This document shows positions 1,236-57,270 of a stretch of DNA of 64,000 bases, piece after piece; position 1 is the stretch's first letter, and the number at the start of each line of letters is the position of its first letter. The DNA is from Lytechinus pictus (taxonomy: Eukaryota). The notes under the pieces are model-generated. The model ran no database searches. It had not been told where the DNA came from and was given only the letters and a program-made list of their open reading frames with translations. The DNA is taken from NCBI RefSeq assembly GCF_037042905.1, contig NC_087251.1, forward strand, positions 12,588,001 to 12,652,000, read 5' to 3'. The position numbers and the translations under genes are program-made.

Positions 1236-4107
1236 TAAGTTTATATATGTCATATGAGGGGCGAAGGGGGAGGAGGGGAAGAAGGGGGGTAACTGGCAAA
1301 ACCTTACACAGGATTTACAGTTTCATTATGTGTAAAGCTTTTTTTTACAAGTTTGTTGAGTGTATTCATATTCAATCACATGCCTTACTGATATGTTATA
1401 AAATTTTGCCATGGCAACATGTATTGTTTCTCAGCATCAATGCACAGAATAAAAAGATGAATGAAGATATCCTTCTATAATAAAAGATGCCATCTCATAA
1501 CTTCCCTCTTGGCAAACCAGACAATGTATTCATTGTCAGGGAATGCGTGTTTCAAATTTACCTCATTGCCAAGATTTCCTCTTGATTCCAATATTCTTAT
1601 CCCTTCATCCATATACTTTCTTCTATTTTTGTTCTATTTATCAGATTTTGCAACATGTTTCTCTTTTCCACTACATCTTCTCTTTTAATTGTTCATTCTT
1701 TTCCGTCTGTAATTAATTCATGATTTATCCTCTTATTCTTCCATCACGTACATCACTTCGACAGCTATACCAAGCTATATTTGTCATCTTTCTTCCACCC
1801 TCTTCTGCACCGTTATTTTTCTCTGTCTCATTTCCATCTTGTTCCCTTCCTTCTATATTGGCTTATTCTCTTTTTTTCTTCTTTATTCTCTTCATTAATT
1901 CATTCCTTCATTTTCAATCCATTTATCATCTTAAATCTCTATCCTGGAGCAGTTTAGCATGGACCTATCCCAGAAACACATCTGACAAATTGGTGCACAT
2001 GAATAGCAATGAATCGAAAATGTGGATGAATTTATTTTGTCAAAAAAGTCACATATTTCATGACATTATGAACTAGACCACAATGAAAGTCTTCAAAAGC
2101 ATCAAAATGATTTTTCTTCCATCTTCCATCAGGCACTATTTACACACTTGCAATTTTAACAATCACAATGAGGACGTGGATTGGGCGCTTCAGCTATTAG
2201 CCATGGACCATCTCCACAATAATAGTGCTCTAATCAAAAGTACGCTACTGCACTGGAACAGACAAAAGCCATTAGTCAAACACAATTACTAAATAAGTCA
2301 TTTTACTGTTCAATCCAGCATTACAGCCTATTACATTACTAAGCTCTTGCCCAGGGCAGGGGCGCTCCTCAACTCAAGCAAACATACAGGCCATTCTACA
2401 GGGGTGCTAAAAGCCACATTTAGATGAAATTATTTCACAAATTGGAACGACTCCGAGCATCTTGCAAGTTGGTTTAATGAGGCAAGAGGACTGAGAATAA
2501 AAGTGAGACATGAAGCATAACTGGTGATGAAATTAGACAGGATTGGTCCGGGATAAATACATTTGTGAGGTTTATTAATGATATTTCTTGCAAGTTACTC
2601 ATGCTAAATCAAACTGCCGATCTCCCAGCCTCAAGCAGGGATGTCTCACATATATAACTAAACTAATTCATTATACTTGCCCAATGAATGCACTATTCCG
2701 AGTAAAAGGATGCCAAAAGAATCAACCCTTTTAAATGCAATTAAATAAAAGGTAGATACCAGATTGCAGGCTTAAGGCAAGACTTGAAACCCAACATATC
2801 AATACTGGTTTCACTTTACGTCTTAAACCCCTGAAAAAAGAGAACCAATCAAGAGACGCAGGTCAAAGACGATAAGTTTAAATGTATATCGCCACAGTAA
2901 CTCAAGCATTCTGTTTTCCTTACATGCTGGTTTTAGCTTACCCACCCCTAAGAATAGGATTGCACTCCCTGTATCTCTCCATTACTCTCAATCAGAGCTA
3001 ATGCTCAAGTGGGGATCAGCTAAATTGAGTGAAGGGATTTCAACCCAGCATTCCTTGTTTTATTTCATGAATGGAAAGGTTCGCCGTAGACCTCAGGAGT
3101 GATTGAAACTGTATAGAATTTAGAAAGTGAAAGAGATGGAGGAAAGGAAAAGGACAAAAATGATGCTTGGGAAGATAAAAGGTTTAGAATGGAGAGAGGA
3201 GGAAAAGCAAAGAGAAGAAAAAGTAGAAAGATAGAAAAGAGAGAAATAAGTAAAGATTTTAAATTCTGAAGTTTTAAAAGGAGGAGAAACAAAAACAAGA
3301 GAAAAAGTGAAAATTTTAAAAGAATTTCAACATTTTGAATTACAATAAGTACGAAGACAGGAGTTTTAATGAAATAATGAATTGGATAACATAATATATA
3401 GTAGGCCCTATTACATGTAGGGAATAGGCCTACATAACAAAGGGACATAATACATAACAAATAATTTTTTTTAATGGGAGTAGATGAATAAAGAACAAAA
3501 TGTCTGTGAAGAAGATGCCATTTACAAGACACAGACATAACAAAATGAACATGTCTCTTCTAATACAAAGTAAAAAGAGAAGAAAAAATGAAAGAGTAAA
3601 TGAAACTTGCGCAATCGTGTGTGAGAGGATGAAAAACGAAGATGAGTTATCCTTGAATTGACAGCATCTCTTTGTTGCGATCCACCACAACTTCAGGGTA
3701 AATGCATCTAGGCTTTTGATATGACATGTGCACGCTTTCATCTCGCTTGATAAAAGCAAGGAGATTCCTTGATAAAAGTACAGGTATAAGGGATGATAAG
3801 TACGGTACAACCAATAAATGAATACACATCTCCTCAGCCTTCCACACATAGAAAGTAAAAGTACTCTCTTGATATTCCCATTATATCACTTTTTTGCTAC
3901 CTTACCAAAATGGTGTTTCTGCACTTTAATTGTTGTAGTTGCATTCACACACAGTGAGAGCAAAATAAAAAGGGATAAAAATAATGATTTTCGAATTTCC
4001 CTATCATGGTTTTGCCTGATATGAAAAAAATAAAAAGATTTTACATTAAGAGGGGAGGGCAAAAACTTTATATATTTATCTTTAAGTAATCCAGAAAAAT
4101 AAATCCC

Positions 4108-4248
4108 GGGCCCATTTCATGAAACTTGTTACATTGATAAATTTGCAATAACATTTAAATGGTAGTGACATCCTTCAATCTGATTGGCAGATTGTTATAC
4201 ACATTATGCAGTTGTTATTAATATGATAAGTCTTCACGAAATGGGACC
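4108..4248. mobile_element. Short degenerate MITE
   Basis: Imperfect TIRs GGGCCCATTTCATGAAACT and AGTCTTCACGAAATGGGACC enclose ~140 bp. The TTTCAT(G/A)AA terminal core is shared with the elements at 854 and 30377. Confidence 0.6.
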
Positions 4249-5512
4249 AAGAACTGTCCATCAGACCCTTCAATTTAATTTTTTAATGTCAGAACACTCT
4301 CATGATCAGCTTTGCTTTGATAATTTTTTGTTGCCTGTATTTGAATATTTAGATAGCCCCCAACTTATCCCCTGGACAAATTTCCTGATACGTGTGCCAA
4401 TGTCTTTGGATCCTATCTGAGGGGCAAGGTCATGATGATCGGAGGGCTCATAAACCAATCGACCTTTTAACCAAGGACTCATATTACATGGTTTATAGTG
4501 TACACATTAATGTTTGGGGATTTGTTTCACTTTACCCACTTTAATAAAATCATATCTCCATCAATATTCATGCTTAGGATCAGGTTAAATGATTCATTTT
4601 GCCAACACATTTGTGCACAGTTTCATGAATAAATGTGTTCACATCTTAAATCTAGCCAAAGAAATCCATCTAGCAAAAAAAAATATCCTGAAAAGAATCT
4701 CAACATTCTTAGTGATTATGTGACTGAAATCTAGTCAAACAAAACAAAAAGCACATAAAAAGAACTTTCCCCTGCCATTCTTTATTGACTATGTAGTTGA
4801 GATTCATCGTTACCAATCACAAGGGAACGCAAGATTGCATGGTGGTGTTGCCATTTTATGCTTCGTTTATACGATAATGATCGACTGAGCGCCGAGCAAT
4901 AAAGTTGGCCTTGGAAAGGATATGAGATACAATGTTACAGAATGTTAAGAACACCCATTTACACCAGGCTACATTCACAGAAGGTGATTGAAAAGCTGAG
5001 AGGTGATTGACAATGAATTCCGGGCCAGACGTGCCATGTTTTTTAATAACGGTATTGCCAATTTGAGTGTCATTCCCACATTCTTCACACGATGTGCATA
5101 CACAAGTAGAGAAGATCTATATCAAGAGAGAACTACGTTTTCAGTCATGACACTTGCAAAGTGCTCAAAATTCTGAATTACTTTTATTAAAAAAATATAT
5201 ATATATATTGGATTCTTTGTGAGCTGAAGGGGTTCTTATGAAGCAAAACCTCCATTCAAGCAACCATCTAGAAAGAATGGTCATCTTTCTAGAAAGAAGA
5301 CTATTTTTTTGTTATTTTTTTACAGTATTAATTCTGAAATTATGATCCACCTTTTGACTGGTAATATCCAGTGAATTTTTCAGTGTAATAAGAGATACAT
5401 GTGGATAAAGCTTGACGGAAGATCAAGGGTTTAAAAAATGAGGGGGAACAGACAATTTACACAATTTATCTATTCCTTTCTGATAAGCAAAAAAATATCT
5501 AATTAAAAATGT

Positions 5513-5791
5513 TCTCATCTCCTTCAGAATCAATTACTAGTCAACCTCAACTTCAACACTAGGGGAAAAAACAGAAGAGATCTTTATAAAATTGCACACA
5601 GACTAATTAAAGCAGTAATTACTAAAATGCTTTGCAATAAGTTTTTAAAAAAATCTCATCCCCTTCAGAATCAATTACTTGTCAACCTCAACTTCAACAC
5701 GAGGGAAAAACTACTAAAAAATAGAAGAGATCTTTATAAAATTAACACACAGACTAATTAAAGCAGTAATTACTAAAATGCTCTGCAATAA
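5513..5791 (+). repeat. Tandem duplication, two copies, ~141-bp period
   Basis: TCTCATC..CCTTCAGAATCAATTACT..GCAATAA occurs at 5513-5640 and again at 5654-5791, with a few substitutions and a short indel. Confidence 0.9.
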
Positions 5792-8700
5792 ATTGAATAC
5801 TAGAAATTTTCCATGCTACAGATAGTGAGAATTTTCAGGAAATAGCATCTCAGAAAAGTTAAGGGGCTTGTTAGCTTTGCCACTCAAAATCATTCTACTA
5901 CCATTCAAATAATTCATTTTCCATGGCAATTCAGTATGAAAGAATAAATATAAAACATTGAAAAAAGAAAACTTTCACAGAAAACATCTTTCCTGTAATG
6001 AAAGTGAACAGAAACATGTAAATACCAAATGAACATTGTTGCTAGAGTGCTGACAAACACGATACACCCTCACAATTGTGGCCTCTCTCATTTAGTATCC
6101 TTTCCATCAAATTACGGCGCCTCGAATCTTTCCCATCCACCATTACGACACTCTATTTAAATAAAAGGGGCCAATTTGGAGATGGTATTCTTCAATGATT
6201 CATTACCTATAAATAATGATAAACCCATTCTAGCACTCTTTACATTGTTACATAAATCATTCATATAAATGACAAAATTAGAATTAAGAACATAAACAGC
6301 ATTGTGCTACCAAAGAAAAAATAATTCATTTGATGAGTCACAAAAAACTAATTGAAAACTTTTAAAAAAAGCATTGCTTAGGAAATTATTAAATGTTTTG
6401 TTCTTGTATTTGAATTACAAAGTTCACCTTCAATTCCATTAAATATCTCTTATCAGACATATAAAATCAATACTCAAATATAGACTATTTGTATACCAAT
6501 GTTAATGAACAGATATTAGTAGTCTATTTCAAGTATTTTGGTTGCATTCATCATGCTTCAAGGACTTGTTTTTAATGGTATTGCACAAAGTTTAATGAAA
6601 AATAATTACCTAATAATCCATTCTTACAATTCACTTTACTCTCATAGATGTGTATAAACGAAATTGAAATTTTGCCATTTTTATTTGTATTACAAATTGC
6701 AAGAGAAAATTAAAAAATAAAAACAGTAGATGCGATACATGATAGAAATGAAAACAGAACATAAGCCAATGACCCTTGCCAGAGCACTAAAAGTACTCTA
6801 CTCCAGCTATGTTTACTATCAAAACAGACATCCCTTCGGGAAAAAAACAGGTTACTTTCATATCTACAGTAGATGAGATCGAAGCTTAAACAGCAAATAG
6901 AATTGTTCACCATGCCCGAAAGAAATAAATGAAAAATGCCAAGCTCAGTTGTAGATGAATTCTACTAGATTTATGCTCGACCTGGGAATATTAAGACTGG
7001 TATGACTAATGCAAGTTGCATTAATATCGATTTGCCTTTTATTTTTCTTTAAATAGTGAGAACTGGGTCGGCCCAGGTGGTTTTGGGGGACGTACATTGT
7101 ACCATAAAATTAGATTAGATTTTACAAAATGACCGCCCTCTGAGACTCGGGTGAAATTGCAGATTTTGTAGGGAATCTAAATAACTGCTCTTTCCATTGC
7201 CAAATGTTAGGAATAGATCATGTTAATATATAAATTAACCCAATTTTACACATTTTCATTTTTTCTGCACCATTTGCAACTCCTTTTTTTTTTTTAATCT
7301 CAACCCACCCCTTTGCTCACAATTGGAGTGTATTTTCTTCTTGAATTTTTACTATAAAACCATTTATGAATTAAAGAATGGGCAGAAAATCCCAAAATAT
7401 GATCTGATTGTAGTTTTGTGATTTATAATCATTTTTTTGTCAGATAAGAATGTTTAAACAGGTTTTACAACAATACTTTTCATGAAATCCAAAAATGAAC
7501 GCAACTTGATATTAAATTTCCTGGAAAACGTTTTCTTTCATGAACCTTAAATACATCAAAAAGTGGATCATGGGGAAACATTCATATCATGAACAAGTGA
7601 TTTGCACTTTAGAATCTAAGTTGATCTATAAAGGTTAACATAAAAGTGCAATGAAGGGGTTCTATAATATTCAGATAATGGATATTTTCTCACCAGTACT
7701 ATGATGGGGAACGGATCCATAACATCCGAAAATAGATTTTGTATCCTGTTGACAGCTAATTTTCCTCGCAGTCGGCCATTCATCAAACGAGGAGCCTCGA
7801 TCTAGAGCATCACCTATGACCTCCTATCACCCATCCCATGACGGTAGTTAGTGATAATTACCGATTGCCATGGCGATGAGGGGCTTGCTTAATGATGCAA
7901 TCCCTGTAGGTGATTTTATGTTTTCTTGTTTTTCTTTGGAGTTAATGGGATGGAAATTAGCCAAGTTGCTCGCTCAATTGCAAGAGAAGAAATATATTAT
8001 AATAGGTTGGTATAAATGAAACAATCAAAAGGTGACATTTATTTTTAGTTCATACATCTAACTGTCTAGAACAATAATCATTACCCATTCTCAAATTTCT
8101 CAATAAATATGAGTATATTATCTAGCCAATCTCTCCAGCTTTGAATTTGAAGTGTCTTCAATTGAGAAAAGAAAATCTCAGTAACAAAAATTTTGTAAAA
8201 ATACCTCCCAATTTTCAAGCCCCCCCCCCCCCAACATTATTGAAAAAAAAGTCCTTCATATACATATTTCAACATTTTGTTGAGTTAACACACATGAAAC
8301 AGTCATATTTCACAATTTCAACAAAATGTAGATGAAATGAAGAAATTAAATAAGGCAGCATATGCATTTCTGTAGTGTTTCAGATTTTATCTTGAACTTT
8401 TCCCCATCCATCTACCTTTTACAATTTTCAATTTAAGTGACATGAAATCAATTTATTGACCTATTAACCTATTTCCTCTAAGAGTTCCATTACATAGAAA
8501 TCAGATGCTACATCAGAACCACAATTGCATCACATCAAATGTTTCCCAACAGTCCAGATACATATACATATACACGTATAAAGCCTTCTCGCGATATCTC
8601 AAACAAGTAACTGTAAATGTACATTGAACTTTACATGTACACCGAGACTATTCTTTGAAGTATTGATTGTATGTACCTGTATAATTTGCAGCTTGATGCT

Positions 8701-15200: not shown

Positions 15201-15454
15201 GCATCATTATTTTGAAGAGTTGATTTCGGATATTGCCGCGATCTGAATCAAGATTTCCCCTATAGACACGTGTGATATAAAGGTTGTGTGTAGCAATACA
15301 CATATTTCTATGGGCAGAGCAAAGGCGAGTGTGCGAAGGCATTCAGCTCAGAATTGACCAATGACAGAGCGGTACGATGTCTCTCACCCAACGCTACTCG
15401 CCCATTCGCTATTGTTTAATGAATATTCATGAGCTATTGATCGGTTCTTTTGCA

Positions 15455-15637
15455 TGTGTGTGTGTGTGTGTGTATTTGAGTTTTGTCAGACGTGTATCAA
15501 TCAGATATGATTATTTACGTCTGGGACCGACCTTTAACGTCACCATCCGAAAGACGTGACCAGGGCTCGAACCTCTGCATCAATTTGTAACTTCCCCGCA
15601 TAGCTTGGATTACAGGCGCACGCCACAACGCCCAGTT
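15455..15637 (-). mobile_element. SINE-like element with 7SL RNA-like head, B box, Deu/Nin-like core and (CA)n tail
   Basis: The minus strand reads ACTGGGCGTTGTGGCGTGCGCCTGTAATCCAAGCTATGCGGG (7SL/Alu 5'-like), then GGTTCGAGCCC (B box), then CGTCTTTCGGATGGTGACGTTAAAGGTCGGTCCC, then a CAGACGT..ACGTCTG stem-loop and (CA)9. Confidence 0.75.
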
Positions 15638-15827
15638 GTATGGTAGTATTCTTGTGTCAATGCCTTTTTCTGCCTGCAAATGTGCACGGTTTGGGGGAGG
15701 GGGGGGTAGGGGGAAAGGTCTTATACTTTGTTTTTTTAGCATTCTCACAAAATTGTTCTCGTTATAAATATATGAGTAAAGAAGGCTGTCATTTCCAACT
15801 CTCATCGCACTGCAATCATCACACTCA

Positions 15828-16003
15828 TTATTTATTTATTCATTTATTATTGTTATTATTATCATTATTAGTATTACTATTATCGTAATCATTATTATCA
15901 TTATTGTTATTGTTATTATTATTATCATTATTCTTCTCCTTCACCTTCTTATTATTAATGTTATTGCCATCAGAATCATCATCATCATCATTATGATTAT
16001 TAT
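15828..16003 (+). repeat. Degenerate (TAT/CAT)n low-complexity tract
   Basis: Runs of TTA/TCA triplets inside the piggyBac-like element. Confidence 0.85.
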
Positions 16004-54665: not shown

Positions 54666-56652
54666 CAATTTTACAATTATGCAGGTCAATTTATAGCACA
54701 AATATTAATTATGAATCCTGCAAGCAATCCCATTATTCAAAACTGACTGCCAGTCTACTTCTTAAATTGATTTTCCAGTTAAAATTGATAGATCAAACAC
54801 AGATTTAAAATGAACAACTTCACCACCCCCCCCCCCTCTAGTTTCTAGGGAGAGTCTATTTTCCCATATGTTTTGTAACACATATGGTAATGTTAGCTAG
54901 TGTTCACATTTTGAAACAAATAACATACAAAGTAAAGACATAAGTAGTGAACTTGCATCCATGAGAAAATGAGATATGAGCAATATTTTTCAATTCCTCT
55001 CATGAACACATGAAAAATCACAAGGACGACAGGAGCAGTTGAAAGATTTGGAGCGTTACCATTGCAAATTTGGCCAGTAAACGAGCACGCTGGGTTCCAG
55101 ATGGTTAATAGCCAATCACATGCTGGTTACCAAATGCATGACAGCCCTCCCGTGACTGGAAAAACCTCCAAATTTTCTAATTTTACAGAAAAAACACCCA
55201 GATCCGAACAGACAAAACAAGTGCCTGGGAATTAATATAGCAGATGTAAGAGAGATCATTGATGGTGGATGATGAAAACAAGACTTAGAGACCTAAATCA
55301 TTGAATGGCTGAGAGCAGCGTTGGCATGAAATAGAAAATTAATAATTATCTAAAAAGGTGACAAAGTTATTTGGGGCCCTGTATTTTTTATTTCAAAATG
55401 CCTTGTGACAAGAACTACTTTTATATGTCTGTTCTTATCCTTAAATTAATAACTAGAAATTTATTCACATAAGTTTGTCTAAGTAACCTCGTTTTCTATC
55501 TTTTGTTGGAACATTAACAATTTATTGTCTATGTTTAAAGCTGCAAGTATTTAATAGCAATTCTAATTTAAAAAGATAACATCAATCCATCACGTCTTTG
55601 GAACTAATGCCCCCAAATTATACCTCAACTGACCTATTAAAAAAAAATTTGAAATATAGTTTTACAAGGTTGAATTTGTACAGTTGGCAGTAATTACAAC
55701 TTGCATTCCCTGGAAAATGGATAGTATAAATCCAGTTATTAGATCATTATCATATATCTGGCATTTTTTCAAAACCATGTCTGACACATTATTCCTCCTT
55801 GTGTACGTATTGAAATAAAATGACTCTTCTTTTACAAAAAAACAATGCACTTTCTTCAGCCCCATATTACAAACTTGGCTGTCTTTGACAGACGTATTGT
55901 CAATGCCTTCTCATTTTAAATGCATTATGTTCAAATTCACACTTGCGTGAGTGACTGTAATAAGACTCCCCATGGACAGGACATCAAATTATACATGCAT
56001 GTAGCATTTCAGAACTTGCACTTCCTCTTTTAAAGTGCAAACAAAATGATATTACAGCCAAAGACTCACTTCTAAATTGAAAAAAAAAATGTTAATAGTT
56101 ACAATATTCTAATCAAGCAAACAATTTATGAGGTTACAAATAAAAGGCATATAATTCAGAGTTACAATACGGGTTTAGCCCATTGGTAGTTTGGGGTATT
56201 TTACCCATCTTATTGCTTACTAAATTTACATTGGGAACCTATTGGCATCGGATGTCAAGCTACATATTGCTACTCTTCTGAGTGTGAATGCTTCCGTCTT
56301 AAGTTGGTCAGTCCCCTGTAAAATCTGTCCTAAAGTAAACTTAAATCACCTTTGACGATGGTTTCTTCTGGCTTCATGAGCAGCATAATCTGTATACTCA
56401 GCCACTGAAAATACATGTAAGGCAGGTTTGGAAGTTCTTAGGTGTACACTACCAACATCCAATCATATAAACACATCTTCACATGATCCTTCTAACAATG
56501 CTAACTCTGTTCACACTATGCAGTAGTTAGACATCTGATGACAACCCTGATACCTACGGATCATCGTTCAAAAAGATATTTTGTCCACCGTCCTCATTTT
56601 AGCTTTACACATACAAACACACACACAAATACAAAAACACAAATGTCCTCAC

Positions 56653-56845
56653 CTCTGGATTGCCTCCGACCATGATATTGGTAGACTCTAGCCTGGTGTG
56701 GACCACGTTGTTCTCATGGAGAAAGGCCAGACCCTGTGATATCTGACAGGACAGGGAGTGCAGTATGGACTCACTGAACTTGTCCAGGAACTTTGGAAGG
56801 AACTGCTGCAGGCAGCCATGCTGGTAGTAGGTGGTGCAGATGTAT
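56653..56845 (-). CDS. Internal coding exon of a protein kinase-fold (pseudokinase-like) gene, subdomains V-VIb
   Basis: Acceptor CTGCATCTCTCTCAG|A and donor GAG|GTGAG bound 193 nt (1 nt + 64 codons): YICTTYYQHGCLQQFLPKFLDKFSESILHSLSCQISQGLAFLHENNVVHTRLESTNIMVGGNPE. This matches the kinase pattern y..G.L..fl ... QI..GL.fLH...vvH.L...NI.v. GC is elevated relative to the flanks. Confidence 0.9.
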
Positions 56846-56929
56846 CTGAGAGAGATGCAGACAAATAAATTTTCTGTTAGATATGAGGAGGAAGAGGACA
56901 CTTGTGATGAAGTAATGTAGAACATTATA

Positions 56930-57270
56930 AATGAAGATGGTGATGGTGGTTGTGATGATCAACAATATTGATGATGACAATCATGATGATTATGATGATA
57001 ATGATGATGATGATATTTTGGTGGTGATGATGAGGATGATGTCGGCAACAATGGTGGTGGTGGTGTAGGTGATGATGATCATGATGTTGATGATAACGAT
57101 GATGATAATGATGCAACAATGAGTTATGTTGCTGGCTAAGGAGCTGGTGAAAATGATAAAGTTAATGATGACCTTAATAATGTTATAATGATGGTTATCT
57201 TGATGATGATGATGGTGATGAAGATGGGGATGATGATAAGGATGTTGATGACTATGGTGGTGGTGATGAT
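56930..57270 (+). repeat. Degenerate (GAT/GGT)n microsatellite
   Basis: GATGAT/GGTGGT triplets just upstream (in gene sense) of the exon acceptor. Confidence 0.9.

Follow-up and report, generated by a model that had tools for sequence, protein, structure and literature searches.

The 64,000-nucleotide (nt) window analysed here (Lytechinus pictus, contig NC_087251.1, positions 12,588,001 to 12,652,000) contains on its minus strand a 182-nt copy of a short interspersed element (SINE) with a 7SL-derived 5' end. With a probability of roughly 80% we conclude that this copy belongs to a recently active SINE family, which depends on a long interspersed element (LINE) for its mobility and carries as its head the 47-nt 5' domain of the 7SL RNA of its own host. 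The genome searched is the assembly of 811.7 Mb, in which the window corresponds to C7:12588001-12652000. A sequence-only reading had previously pointed to the element, and the strings it quoted for the head, B box, 34-nt motif, hairpin and tail are all found on the minus strand where it had placed them. The boundaries of the parts (Table 1) were verified by index on that strand.

Comparison with the 7SL genes of this genome supports a head that derives from the host lineage's own 7SL and not from a tRNA. In a permissive Infernal scan of 501 nt the head matches positions 1-44 of the 299 positions in the Rfam model Metazoa_SRP (RF00017) at 29.6 bits (E 6e-6), with helices 2, 3 and 4 all paired. 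This is below the gathering score of 70, as expected when 44 of 299 positions are matched, and the whole window contains no Rfam family at gathering score. The host genome contains seven full 7SL genes (272-283 bits). The other 18 of the 25 scored 7SL matches reach 31.9-34.9 bits, and the three that were inspected (L038-L040) are copies of the 7SL-headed SINE. SINE nt 1-31 are identical at 31/31 positions to one host 7SL gene (L037), with a single difference (30/31) from each of the other six. Across all 47 positions of the head, L037 agrees with the SINE at 42 and another of the genes (L031) at 40. Aligned to the host genes the head scores 60-63, against a shuffle mean of ~15 and a maximum of 24-26, and none of the 500 shuffles reaches its score. 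Helix 2 reads ACU/AGU in the SINE and in L037 and ACC/GGU in the other six genes, which makes an L037-like gene the likeliest source of the head. The sequence-only reading had proposed the 7SL origin from 32 of 42 positions shared with human 7SL. The resemblance is indeed far beyond chance, although this figure understates the match, given the perfect agreement with the host gene over 31 positions.

Beyond the head the likeness ends. When SINE nt 48-166 are compared with any part of host 7SL, the score of 15 equals the null mean (15.3) and is reached by 289-295 of 500 shuffles, by which a longer 7SL homology is ruled out. Therefore the 7SL part consists of the complete 5' domain alone, with the 3' strand of helix 2 as its exact end. 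That the similarity would stop after ~42 nt and that the element is no 7SL gene had been anticipated correctly, with the actual end at about nt 47. A 7SL gene or a retro-pseudogene was likewise rejected, since only RF00017 positions 1-44 of 299 are matched whereas true genes score 272-283 bits.

The head could also be a diverged tRNA-derived head, with a likeness to 7SL that arose by chance or through convergence on the promoter boxes used by Pol III (RNA polymerase III). The B box is of the tRNA type and differs at a single one of its 11 positions from that of a tRNA-headed SINE in the same genome (see below), and according to the SINEBase text A and B boxes by themselves are no proof of origin. 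Nonetheless, the identity to the host gene over 31 positions includes lineage-specific bases that are unlike the Rfam consensus, and no shuffle reaches the 7SL score. No tRNA is found by ARAGORN in the window, nor is any tRNA family among the matches of the permissive Rfam scan of the 501 nt. We consider a tRNA origin next to impossible; a head nearer to a tRNA than to host 7SL, which the original proposal could not have survived, is not what these comparisons yield.

Two minor results may be added. A weak match to the Rfam family mir-1268 (15586-15638, minus strand) overlaps the head with 25.7 bits against a gathering score of 83, and does not represent a miRNA gene. We take mir-1268 to be an Alu-derived family, so that this match would reflect the same likeness to 7SL. 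Folding of the whole element yields a z of -0.69.

The element is present in many copies. A first look identified 1633 candidates genome-wide, and all of the 40 best, which were scored, are 99-100% identical over 177-186 nt and are located on many contigs, as expected for the multi-copy family that had been suspected. Counts of exact words are lower: a head word that distinguishes the SINE from 7SL genes occurs 548 times genome-wide and a 31-nt junction word of subfamily A, just downstream of the head, 336 times. Three subfamilies can be told apart in the alignment by diagnostic indels. Subfamily A is the type seen in the window. Subfamily B (~93% identical to A) carries a 7-nt duplication beside the B box, and subfamily C (~87% identical to A) shares this duplication and is missing 11 nt of the linker; an exact word of the B/C duplication occurs 37 times genome-wide. 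The head and its helices 2, 3 and 4 are kept in all three.

Flank features of the 30 best copies were read by eye. These copies have a sharp 5' end, often with 1-2 extra CA before it, a tail of variable length and, in some cases, short target duplications of 4-8 bp. Four of them lie in the piggyBac-like repeat that also hosts the window copy, four lie in a second repeat, and for the remaining 22 the flanks are not seen recurring among the 30. In addition, 5'-truncated copies are present, some with unique flanks. The family is interspersed and very young, and the 99-100% identity among the best copies suggests that it may still be active. In terms of the SINEBase definition (PMC3531059) the element is short (182 nt, below 1 kb), interspersed on many contigs, non-tandem and multi-copy, and with its 7SL-derived 5' region it belongs to SINE1 in the Repbase sense.

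Copies of this kind might have multiplied as passengers of larger repeats (the piggyBac-like and a satellite-like one) or of segmental duplications. Eight of the 30 best copies are located inside two repeat families, the flanks of the subfamily B copies L039 and L040 agree at ~97% over a minimum of 3 kb, and three subfamily C copies lie inside tandemly duplicated 7SL gene units. Against this stand the 22 best copies with flanks that do not recur, the truncated copies with unique flanks and the piggyBac-like repeat itself: 24 of its 29 other copies have an empty site, and the occupied copies differ in junction and combine SINEs that are 99-100% identical with flanks that are only ~90-96% identical. 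Passenger multiplication is therefore extremely improbable as an account of the family, and the sequence is neither single-copy nor confined to the piggyBac-like element, two outcomes that the sequence-only reading had counted as fatal.

Another possibility is that the copies are recurrent chimeric retro-pseudogenes, which arose by repeated template switches from a hairpin-type element to 7SL RNA, without forming a lineage that has a Pol III promoter of its own. Chimeric SINEs are known to arise through template switching according to Kojima 2020 (PMC7245038), and 7SL RNA is abundant. However, the junction is uniform, as seen from the 336 exact 31-nt words and 548 head words, and subfamilies with different diagnostic indels share the end of the head, which is the pattern expected from copying of a master element. 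We regard recurrent switching as very unlikely; a single template switch is a good model for the birth of the family.

The loci L039 and L040 differ in that one contains two head-to-tail subfamily B copies and the other only one. This is as expected from unequal crossing-over, and similar pairs are found at four more places in the genome. A dimeric SINE was considered for these tandem pairs and ruled out, because L039 and L040 share their flanks over at least 3 kb.

Downstream of the head, the body is composed of a linker, the B box and a 34-nt motif. Both the A-box-like stretch of the head (15623..15633) and the B box (15563..15573) fit what we assume to be the respective consensus sequences, that of tRNA genes in case of the A box. 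The genome also holds a typical tRNA-headed DeuSINE, which the 34-nt motif matches in 21 of 24 columns (its score of 31 compares with 14.5-16.1 in the null and is reached by 0 of 1000 shuffles), and the two B boxes are identical at 10 of 11 positions. A comparison by hand with the Deu alignment in the supplement of PMC7245038 (Fig. S4) yields ~31 of 42 columns. The motif is thus Deu/Nin-like, as had been suggested from the letters. The remainder is not shared between the two elements: the B-box region beyond the box itself, the tail and the head yield scores that are reached by 99, 207 and 310 of 1000 shuffles, respectively. Only 24-40 nt of the Deu domain are present in the SINE, and the remaining ~100 nt, as found in the genome's DeuSINE, are absent. 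A genome-wide pattern of a tRNA A box, the same B box and the Deu core has a single match, which is a mutated copy of the same SINE and hence no tRNA-headed twin. Consequently the proposed swap of a 7SL head onto a Deu-type body is not supported, as there is only a fragment of the domain, body and tail are not shared with the DeuSINE and the twin was not found.

At one locus (L046) the tail of a 7SL-SINE copy encloses a complete tRNA-headed DeuSINE of 387 nt. This arrangement raised the idea of a DeuSINE that shares the terminus of the SINE, which was ruled out by other DeuSINE copies, as these end in (AAT)n/(AAC)n-type tails.

The 3' hairpin of the SINE folds with -13.0 kcal/mol (z -4.4), and none of 200 shuffles folds as well. 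Presumably it is the recognition element for a reverse transcriptase. Related hairpins end two other kinds of elements. The first is a non-coding element of ~440 nt with internal repeats and an (AAC)n tail, for which 122 pattern matches are found; in ~70 of the 100 matches listed an upstream sequence is shared (by eye). This shared sequence, together with the ~440-nt elements in L081 and L082, ruled out that the (AAC)n unit is a hairpin only. The second is a full-length LINE of ~6.1 kb with a (GAA)n tail. Its second open reading frame (ORF2) is uninterrupted over 1264 amino acids (aa) and contains the Pfam domains Exo_endo_phos (26-232), RVT_1 (531-775) and RNase_H (981-1109); ORF1 has at least 441 codons and three CCHC knuckles (by eye), with no Pfam match at E 0.001 or below. 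This LINE (L062 and L083) looks recently active. The three hairpins are built alike, with an outer stem of 6-7 bp, AAA, an inner stem of 6 bp and a tetraloop. The third inner pair is A-U, U-A and G-C across the three, and the outer stems differ in sequence yet all pair. The LINE shares also the motif behind the hairpin with the SINE.

Insertion sites connect the same elements. The window copy lies inside the piggyBac-like host repeat, for which at least 1358 first-look candidates are found. Parts of this repeat surround the SINE at window positions 15422-15454 and 15637-15990 (minus strand), and the repeat ends ~475-487 nt downstream. The 29 other copies of the repeat (L048-L077 set) comprise 24 with an empty site, three with other insertions, one with a truncated SINE and one that is rearranged. 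The three other insertions at this place (hot spot 1) are an (AAC)n element, a truncated LINE copy and the full-length LINE, and SINE copies occupy hot spot 1 as well, namely four of the 30 best together with L046 and L068. The full-length LINE is found at the same junction as the SINE copies L001, L008, L029, L046 and L068. Among occupied copies the junctions differ slightly, and the SINEs are 99-100% identical whereas the flanks are only ~90-96% identical; therefore these are independent, later insertions. SINE, (AAC)n element and LINE have thus each inserted on their own into one hot spot, for which endonuclease specificity or DNA structure may be the cause. In the window copy there is no target duplication, and ~5 nt of the empty site are missing.

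A second hot spot, in a satellite-like repeat, holds four SINE copies and (AAC)n elements (L016, L022, L025, L028, L079-L082). Behind both kinds of insertion the flank is alike here. In L079 the two elements adjoin, with a SINE copy beginning where the (AAC)n tail of the other one ends.

Because of the shared hairpin architecture, the covariation across three hairpins and the shared insertion site, the LINE of L062 and L083 is linked to the SINE as a candidate partner. Its ORF2 with apurinic/apyrimidinic endonuclease, reverse transcriptase and RNase H and its CCHC-bearing ORF1 are those of an I/Nimb-like LINE, an assignment made from these features. We take RNase H and a CCHC ORF1 to be the mark of the I group, and the clade name I/Nimb-like follows this presumed classification. 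Judged from sequence features, the best candidate for the partner is thus an I/Nimb-like LINE and not one of the CR1/L2 type, as the sequence-only reading had expected from the hairpin and the microsatellite tail. The only LINE found with a related hairpin, the post-hairpin motif and the same insertion site carries endonuclease, reverse transcriptase, RNase H and a CCHC ORF1, the last two being the presumed I-group marks. A CR1/L2-type LINE, or another LINE that escaped our searches, is an unlikely partner, although the examination covered a single LINE, none with a (CA)n tail was found, and a 3' hairpin with a short-repeat tail is typical of CR1/L2 partners as well (PMC4824008). Members of the Nimb clade do occur in sea urchins (PMC4758252).

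Further genome searches with patterns of the SINE tail led to no other element. Patterns that combine the tail with non-SINE upstream sequence have 0 matches. One variant of the tail pattern has 47 matches, all of them a 1-nt indel variant of the SINE, and another has two matches with unique flanks. With up to three mismatches allowed there are 72 matches, none of which has a common non-SINE upstream sequence.

Table 1. Parts of the SINE copy in the window, with related elements found elsewhere in the genome. Unless a locus is given, positions are those of the window.
Feature	Position	Strand	Details and basis
Whole SINE copy, subfamily A (youngest)	15455..15636	minus	182 nt; copies on other contigs match it at 100% identity over 180-184 nt
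Head, complete 7SL 5' domain (helices 2, 3, 4) from 7SL position 1	15590..15636	minus	SINE nt 1-47; RF00017 match, host 7SL comparison
A-box-like stretch in head, at the place of the 7SL A box	15623..15633	minus	SINE nt 4-14; position compared with human 7SL A box 6-15 (PMC7245038)
Linker, 16 nt, similar neither to 7SL nor to DeuSINE	15574..15589	minus	SINE nt 48-63; subfamily alignment, shuffle tests
tRNA-type B box, 11 nt	15563..15573	minus	SINE nt 64-74; direct reading; 49 nt past the A-box-like stretch
Spacer, 6 nt	between B box and 34-nt motif	minus	SINE nt 75-80
Deu/Nin-DC central-domain fragment (5' part only), 34 nt	15523..15556	minus	SINE nt 81-114; comparison with the genome's DeuSINE
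3' hairpin, 37 nt (7-bp outer stem, AAA, 6-bp inner stem, tetraloop)	15487..15523	minus	SINE nt 114-150; folding
Post-hairpin segment, 13 nt	15474..15486	minus	SINE nt 151-163; kept in all subfamilies; related segment in (AAC)n-tailed element
(AC)n microsatellite tail, 19 nt	15455..15473	minus	SINE nt 164-182; length differs among copies
TACA between host repeat and SINE 5' end	15637..15640	minus	compared with 24 empty host-repeat copies: TAC fits the empty site, A is extra
3' flank, host repeat resuming at hot spot 1	15422..15454	minus	same junction in other SINE copies, (AAC)n element and full-length LINE
Full-length LINE	L062 1-1494, continuing in L083 ~1750-6401	minus	both reading frames open
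(AAC)n-tailed element, examples	L081 2735-3201; L082 2742-3229		

From these parts a mode of propagation can be proposed. Pol III would start at 7SL +1 by means of the A box of 7SL and, 49 nt further on, the B box of the tRNA type. A direct reading finds no TTTT run inside the SINE, and because the element lacks a run of four T, transcription would continue through the tail until it meets a T-run of the flanking DNA. An I/Nimb-like LINE would then supply the reverse transcriptase that recognises the 3' hairpin and the microsatellite, and the LINE endonuclease would nick preferred sites. Target-primed reverse transcription at such nicks might account for the short or missing target duplications and for the CA that is occasionally filled in at the 5' end. 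Once folded, the 5' domain may furthermore bind SRP9/14 and carry the RNA to ribosomes that are translating the LINE, by analogy with what has been proposed for Alu. As to the origin of the family, cDNA synthesis or recombination most likely joined 7SL nt 1-47 to an older non-autonomous element of the hairpin type, and a switch of template to 7SL RNA, at the point where its 5' domain ends, may have brought this about.

The role of the head is the part of this proposal that is most open to a different view, according to which it provides only a promoter and start site (the A box), the Alu-5'-domain fold and SRP9/14 binding are irrelevant and the 3' hairpin alone mobilises the element. Stringent LINEs recognise SINE 3' hairpins (PMC7245038, citing Kajikawa and Okada 2002), copying of the 3' module is shown by the (AAC)n element and by truncated copies that retain only the hairpin, and the head may be intact merely through the youth of a family that was copied from a functional gene. 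Yet the end of the 7SL part coincides exactly with that of the 5' domain, and helices 2, 3 and 4 are kept in three subfamilies, one of which is only ~87% identical to A. In human Alu the 46-nt 5' domain is described as the minimal part that binds SRP9/14 and as necessary for and promoting retrotransposition (Moldovan, Yin and Moran 2025, PMC12199147), and Kojima 2020 (PMC7245038) argues likewise for the head of a hagfish SINE; both would speak for a function of the fold here only by analogy. A head that acts as a promoter only is a real possibility, although it falls somewhat short of what we expect.

Several points weigh against the reading as a LINE-dependent SINE family with a 7SL head. The 3' untranslated region of the candidate LINE and the SINE tail score 16 against a null mean of 17.3, and 732 of 1000 shuffles reach this score. 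None of the genome pattern searches retrieves a LINE that ends in (CA)n or that carries the hairpin sequence of the SINE itself, and the candidate LINE ends in (GAA)n, unlike the (CA)n of the SINE. Binding of SRP9/14 is suggested by work on mammals only, and would apply here by analogy. The copy number is modest (several hundred). The 7SL overlap of 47 nt fails the SINEBase rule of at least 60% identity over at least 60 nt of tRNA, 5S or 7SL RNA (PMC3531059). Finally, the fold energy of the head is unremarkable (z 0.18), but the test is uninformative either way, since the true host 7SL 5' domain has a z of 0.10.

Comparison with known systems shows where this family stands. Like Alu and B1 (SINE1, Euarchontoglires) it has a head that derives from 7SL from position 1 on and that includes the A box of 7SL as well as helices 3 and 4 of the 5' domain. 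Those elements, however, consist of 7SL only, with both of its ends retained after a central deletion of ~183 nt (PMC13023118), carry poly(A) and are moved by L1, whereas here only nt 1-47 are found, together with a tRNA-type B box, a foreign body, a 3' hairpin and a (CA)n tail. The designation 'Alu-like' in the sequence-only reading is thus appropriate for the origin of the head and for nothing else. Measured by SINE1 as described, with both 7SL ends and a full Alu domain, the element falls short as well, as the 3' half of the Alu domain is absent.

More similar is the hagfish family SINE1-1_EBu, which according to Kojima 2020 (PMC7245038) arose independently from its own 7SL and combines a chimeric body with a LINE-type microsatellite tail, a non-L1 partner and a young family of a few thousand copies or fewer. 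It contains 96 nt of the 5' and 44 nt of the 3' part of 7SL with a full Alu domain, a bipartite RTE-derived sequence and an (AAC)n tail; our SINE has the 5' domain only, no LINE with an identical tail was found for it, and its candidate partner is of the I/Nimb-like type. A further independent 7SL-derived SINE is Urop of the shrew mole, but it is described as dimeric, with Alu-like monomers that show the same central deletion, with poly(A), L1 as partner and ~280,000 copies (Kosushkin et al. 2026, PMC13023118). The tree shrew Tu types and GarnAlu also unite 7SL- and tRNA-derived promoter parts in one element (PMC7245038), by fusion of whole monomers within the Alu/B1 lineage rather than of a 47-nt 7SL piece and a lone B box. 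With DeuSINEs or Nin-DC SINEs (e.g. SINE2-3_SP of sea urchin) the family shares the 5' core of the Deu/Nin-DC domain over ~24-40 nt, whereas head, spacing, the rest of the body and tail differ (as compared with the DeuSINE of this genome). The part closest in extent is the minimal 5' Alu domain itself, the same 7SL/Alu region with 46 against 47 nt, which was obtained by engineered deletion in a human Alu moved by L1 in HeLa cells (PMC12199147); here it occurs in a natural element of a distant animal and, as far as the candidate partner indicates, with another type of LINE.

Independent lineages of 7SL-derived SINEs are described as extremely rare (PMC13023118, PMC7245038). Kojima 2018 places SINE1 only in Euarchontoglires, Kojima 2020 presents the hagfish family as the first evident SINE1 elsewhere (PMC7245038), and Kosushkin et al. 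2026 state that none is reported outside supraprimates, hagfish and shrew mole, all of them after the ~183-nt central deletion (PMC13023118). In the literature searched, which does not extend to Repbase, Dfam and SINEBase, no 7SL SINE of an echinoderm or other invertebrate is described and the head and body strings of the SINE are in no searchable text, with unrelated papers as the sole outcome of a motif search; the family may be catalogued in one of these databases, possibly under another class. Tentatively, it could represent the fourth independent birth of a 7SL-headed SINE, the first outside vertebrates and the first with only the 47-nt 5' domain. It might then be a natural counterpart of the minimal Alu domain, in which the fold, with presumed SRP9/14 binding and ribosome docking, helps to compete for the proteins of an I/Nimb-like LINE.

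Some observations were made on the host 7SL genes themselves. In six of the seven (L031-L036) a B-box-like motif is located 15-40 nt after the terminator T-run and is followed by a second T-run, in flanks that have otherwise diverged. In four of these genes the motif folds into a perfect hairpin that resembles a T-arm. It could serve Pol III as an extragenic promoter element, such as yeast SNR6 has, or be what is left of a tRNA-derived element. In the 7SL cluster on contig C10 each of three tandem 7SL genes (L031, L035, L036) is preceded by a SINE copy of subfamily C that ends ~33 bp upstream, and in L031 a second copy is present 400 bp further upstream. SINE head and 7SL gene start thereby form direct repeats ~215 bp apart. 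Elsewhere in the window, the only Pfam match among its 18 open frames is a protein kinase fragment (PK_Tyr_Ser-Thr, 56608-56958, minus strand, E 7.7e-12), which is probably an exon.

A natural element that keeps only the 5' domain bears on the question which part of 7SL a SINE needs, the more so as the retained 47 nt coincide with the 46-nt domain that is necessary for and promotes Alu retrotransposition (PMC12199147). If the proposed reading is true, this small fold would help a SINE with a partner that is quite unlike L1 or RTE. Short 7SL heads of this kind can escape criteria such as a 60-nt overlap. Overall, a possibly active SINE and a candidate LINE with intact frames would provide an invertebrate system in which SRP9/14 docking can be tested with a non-L1 LINE.

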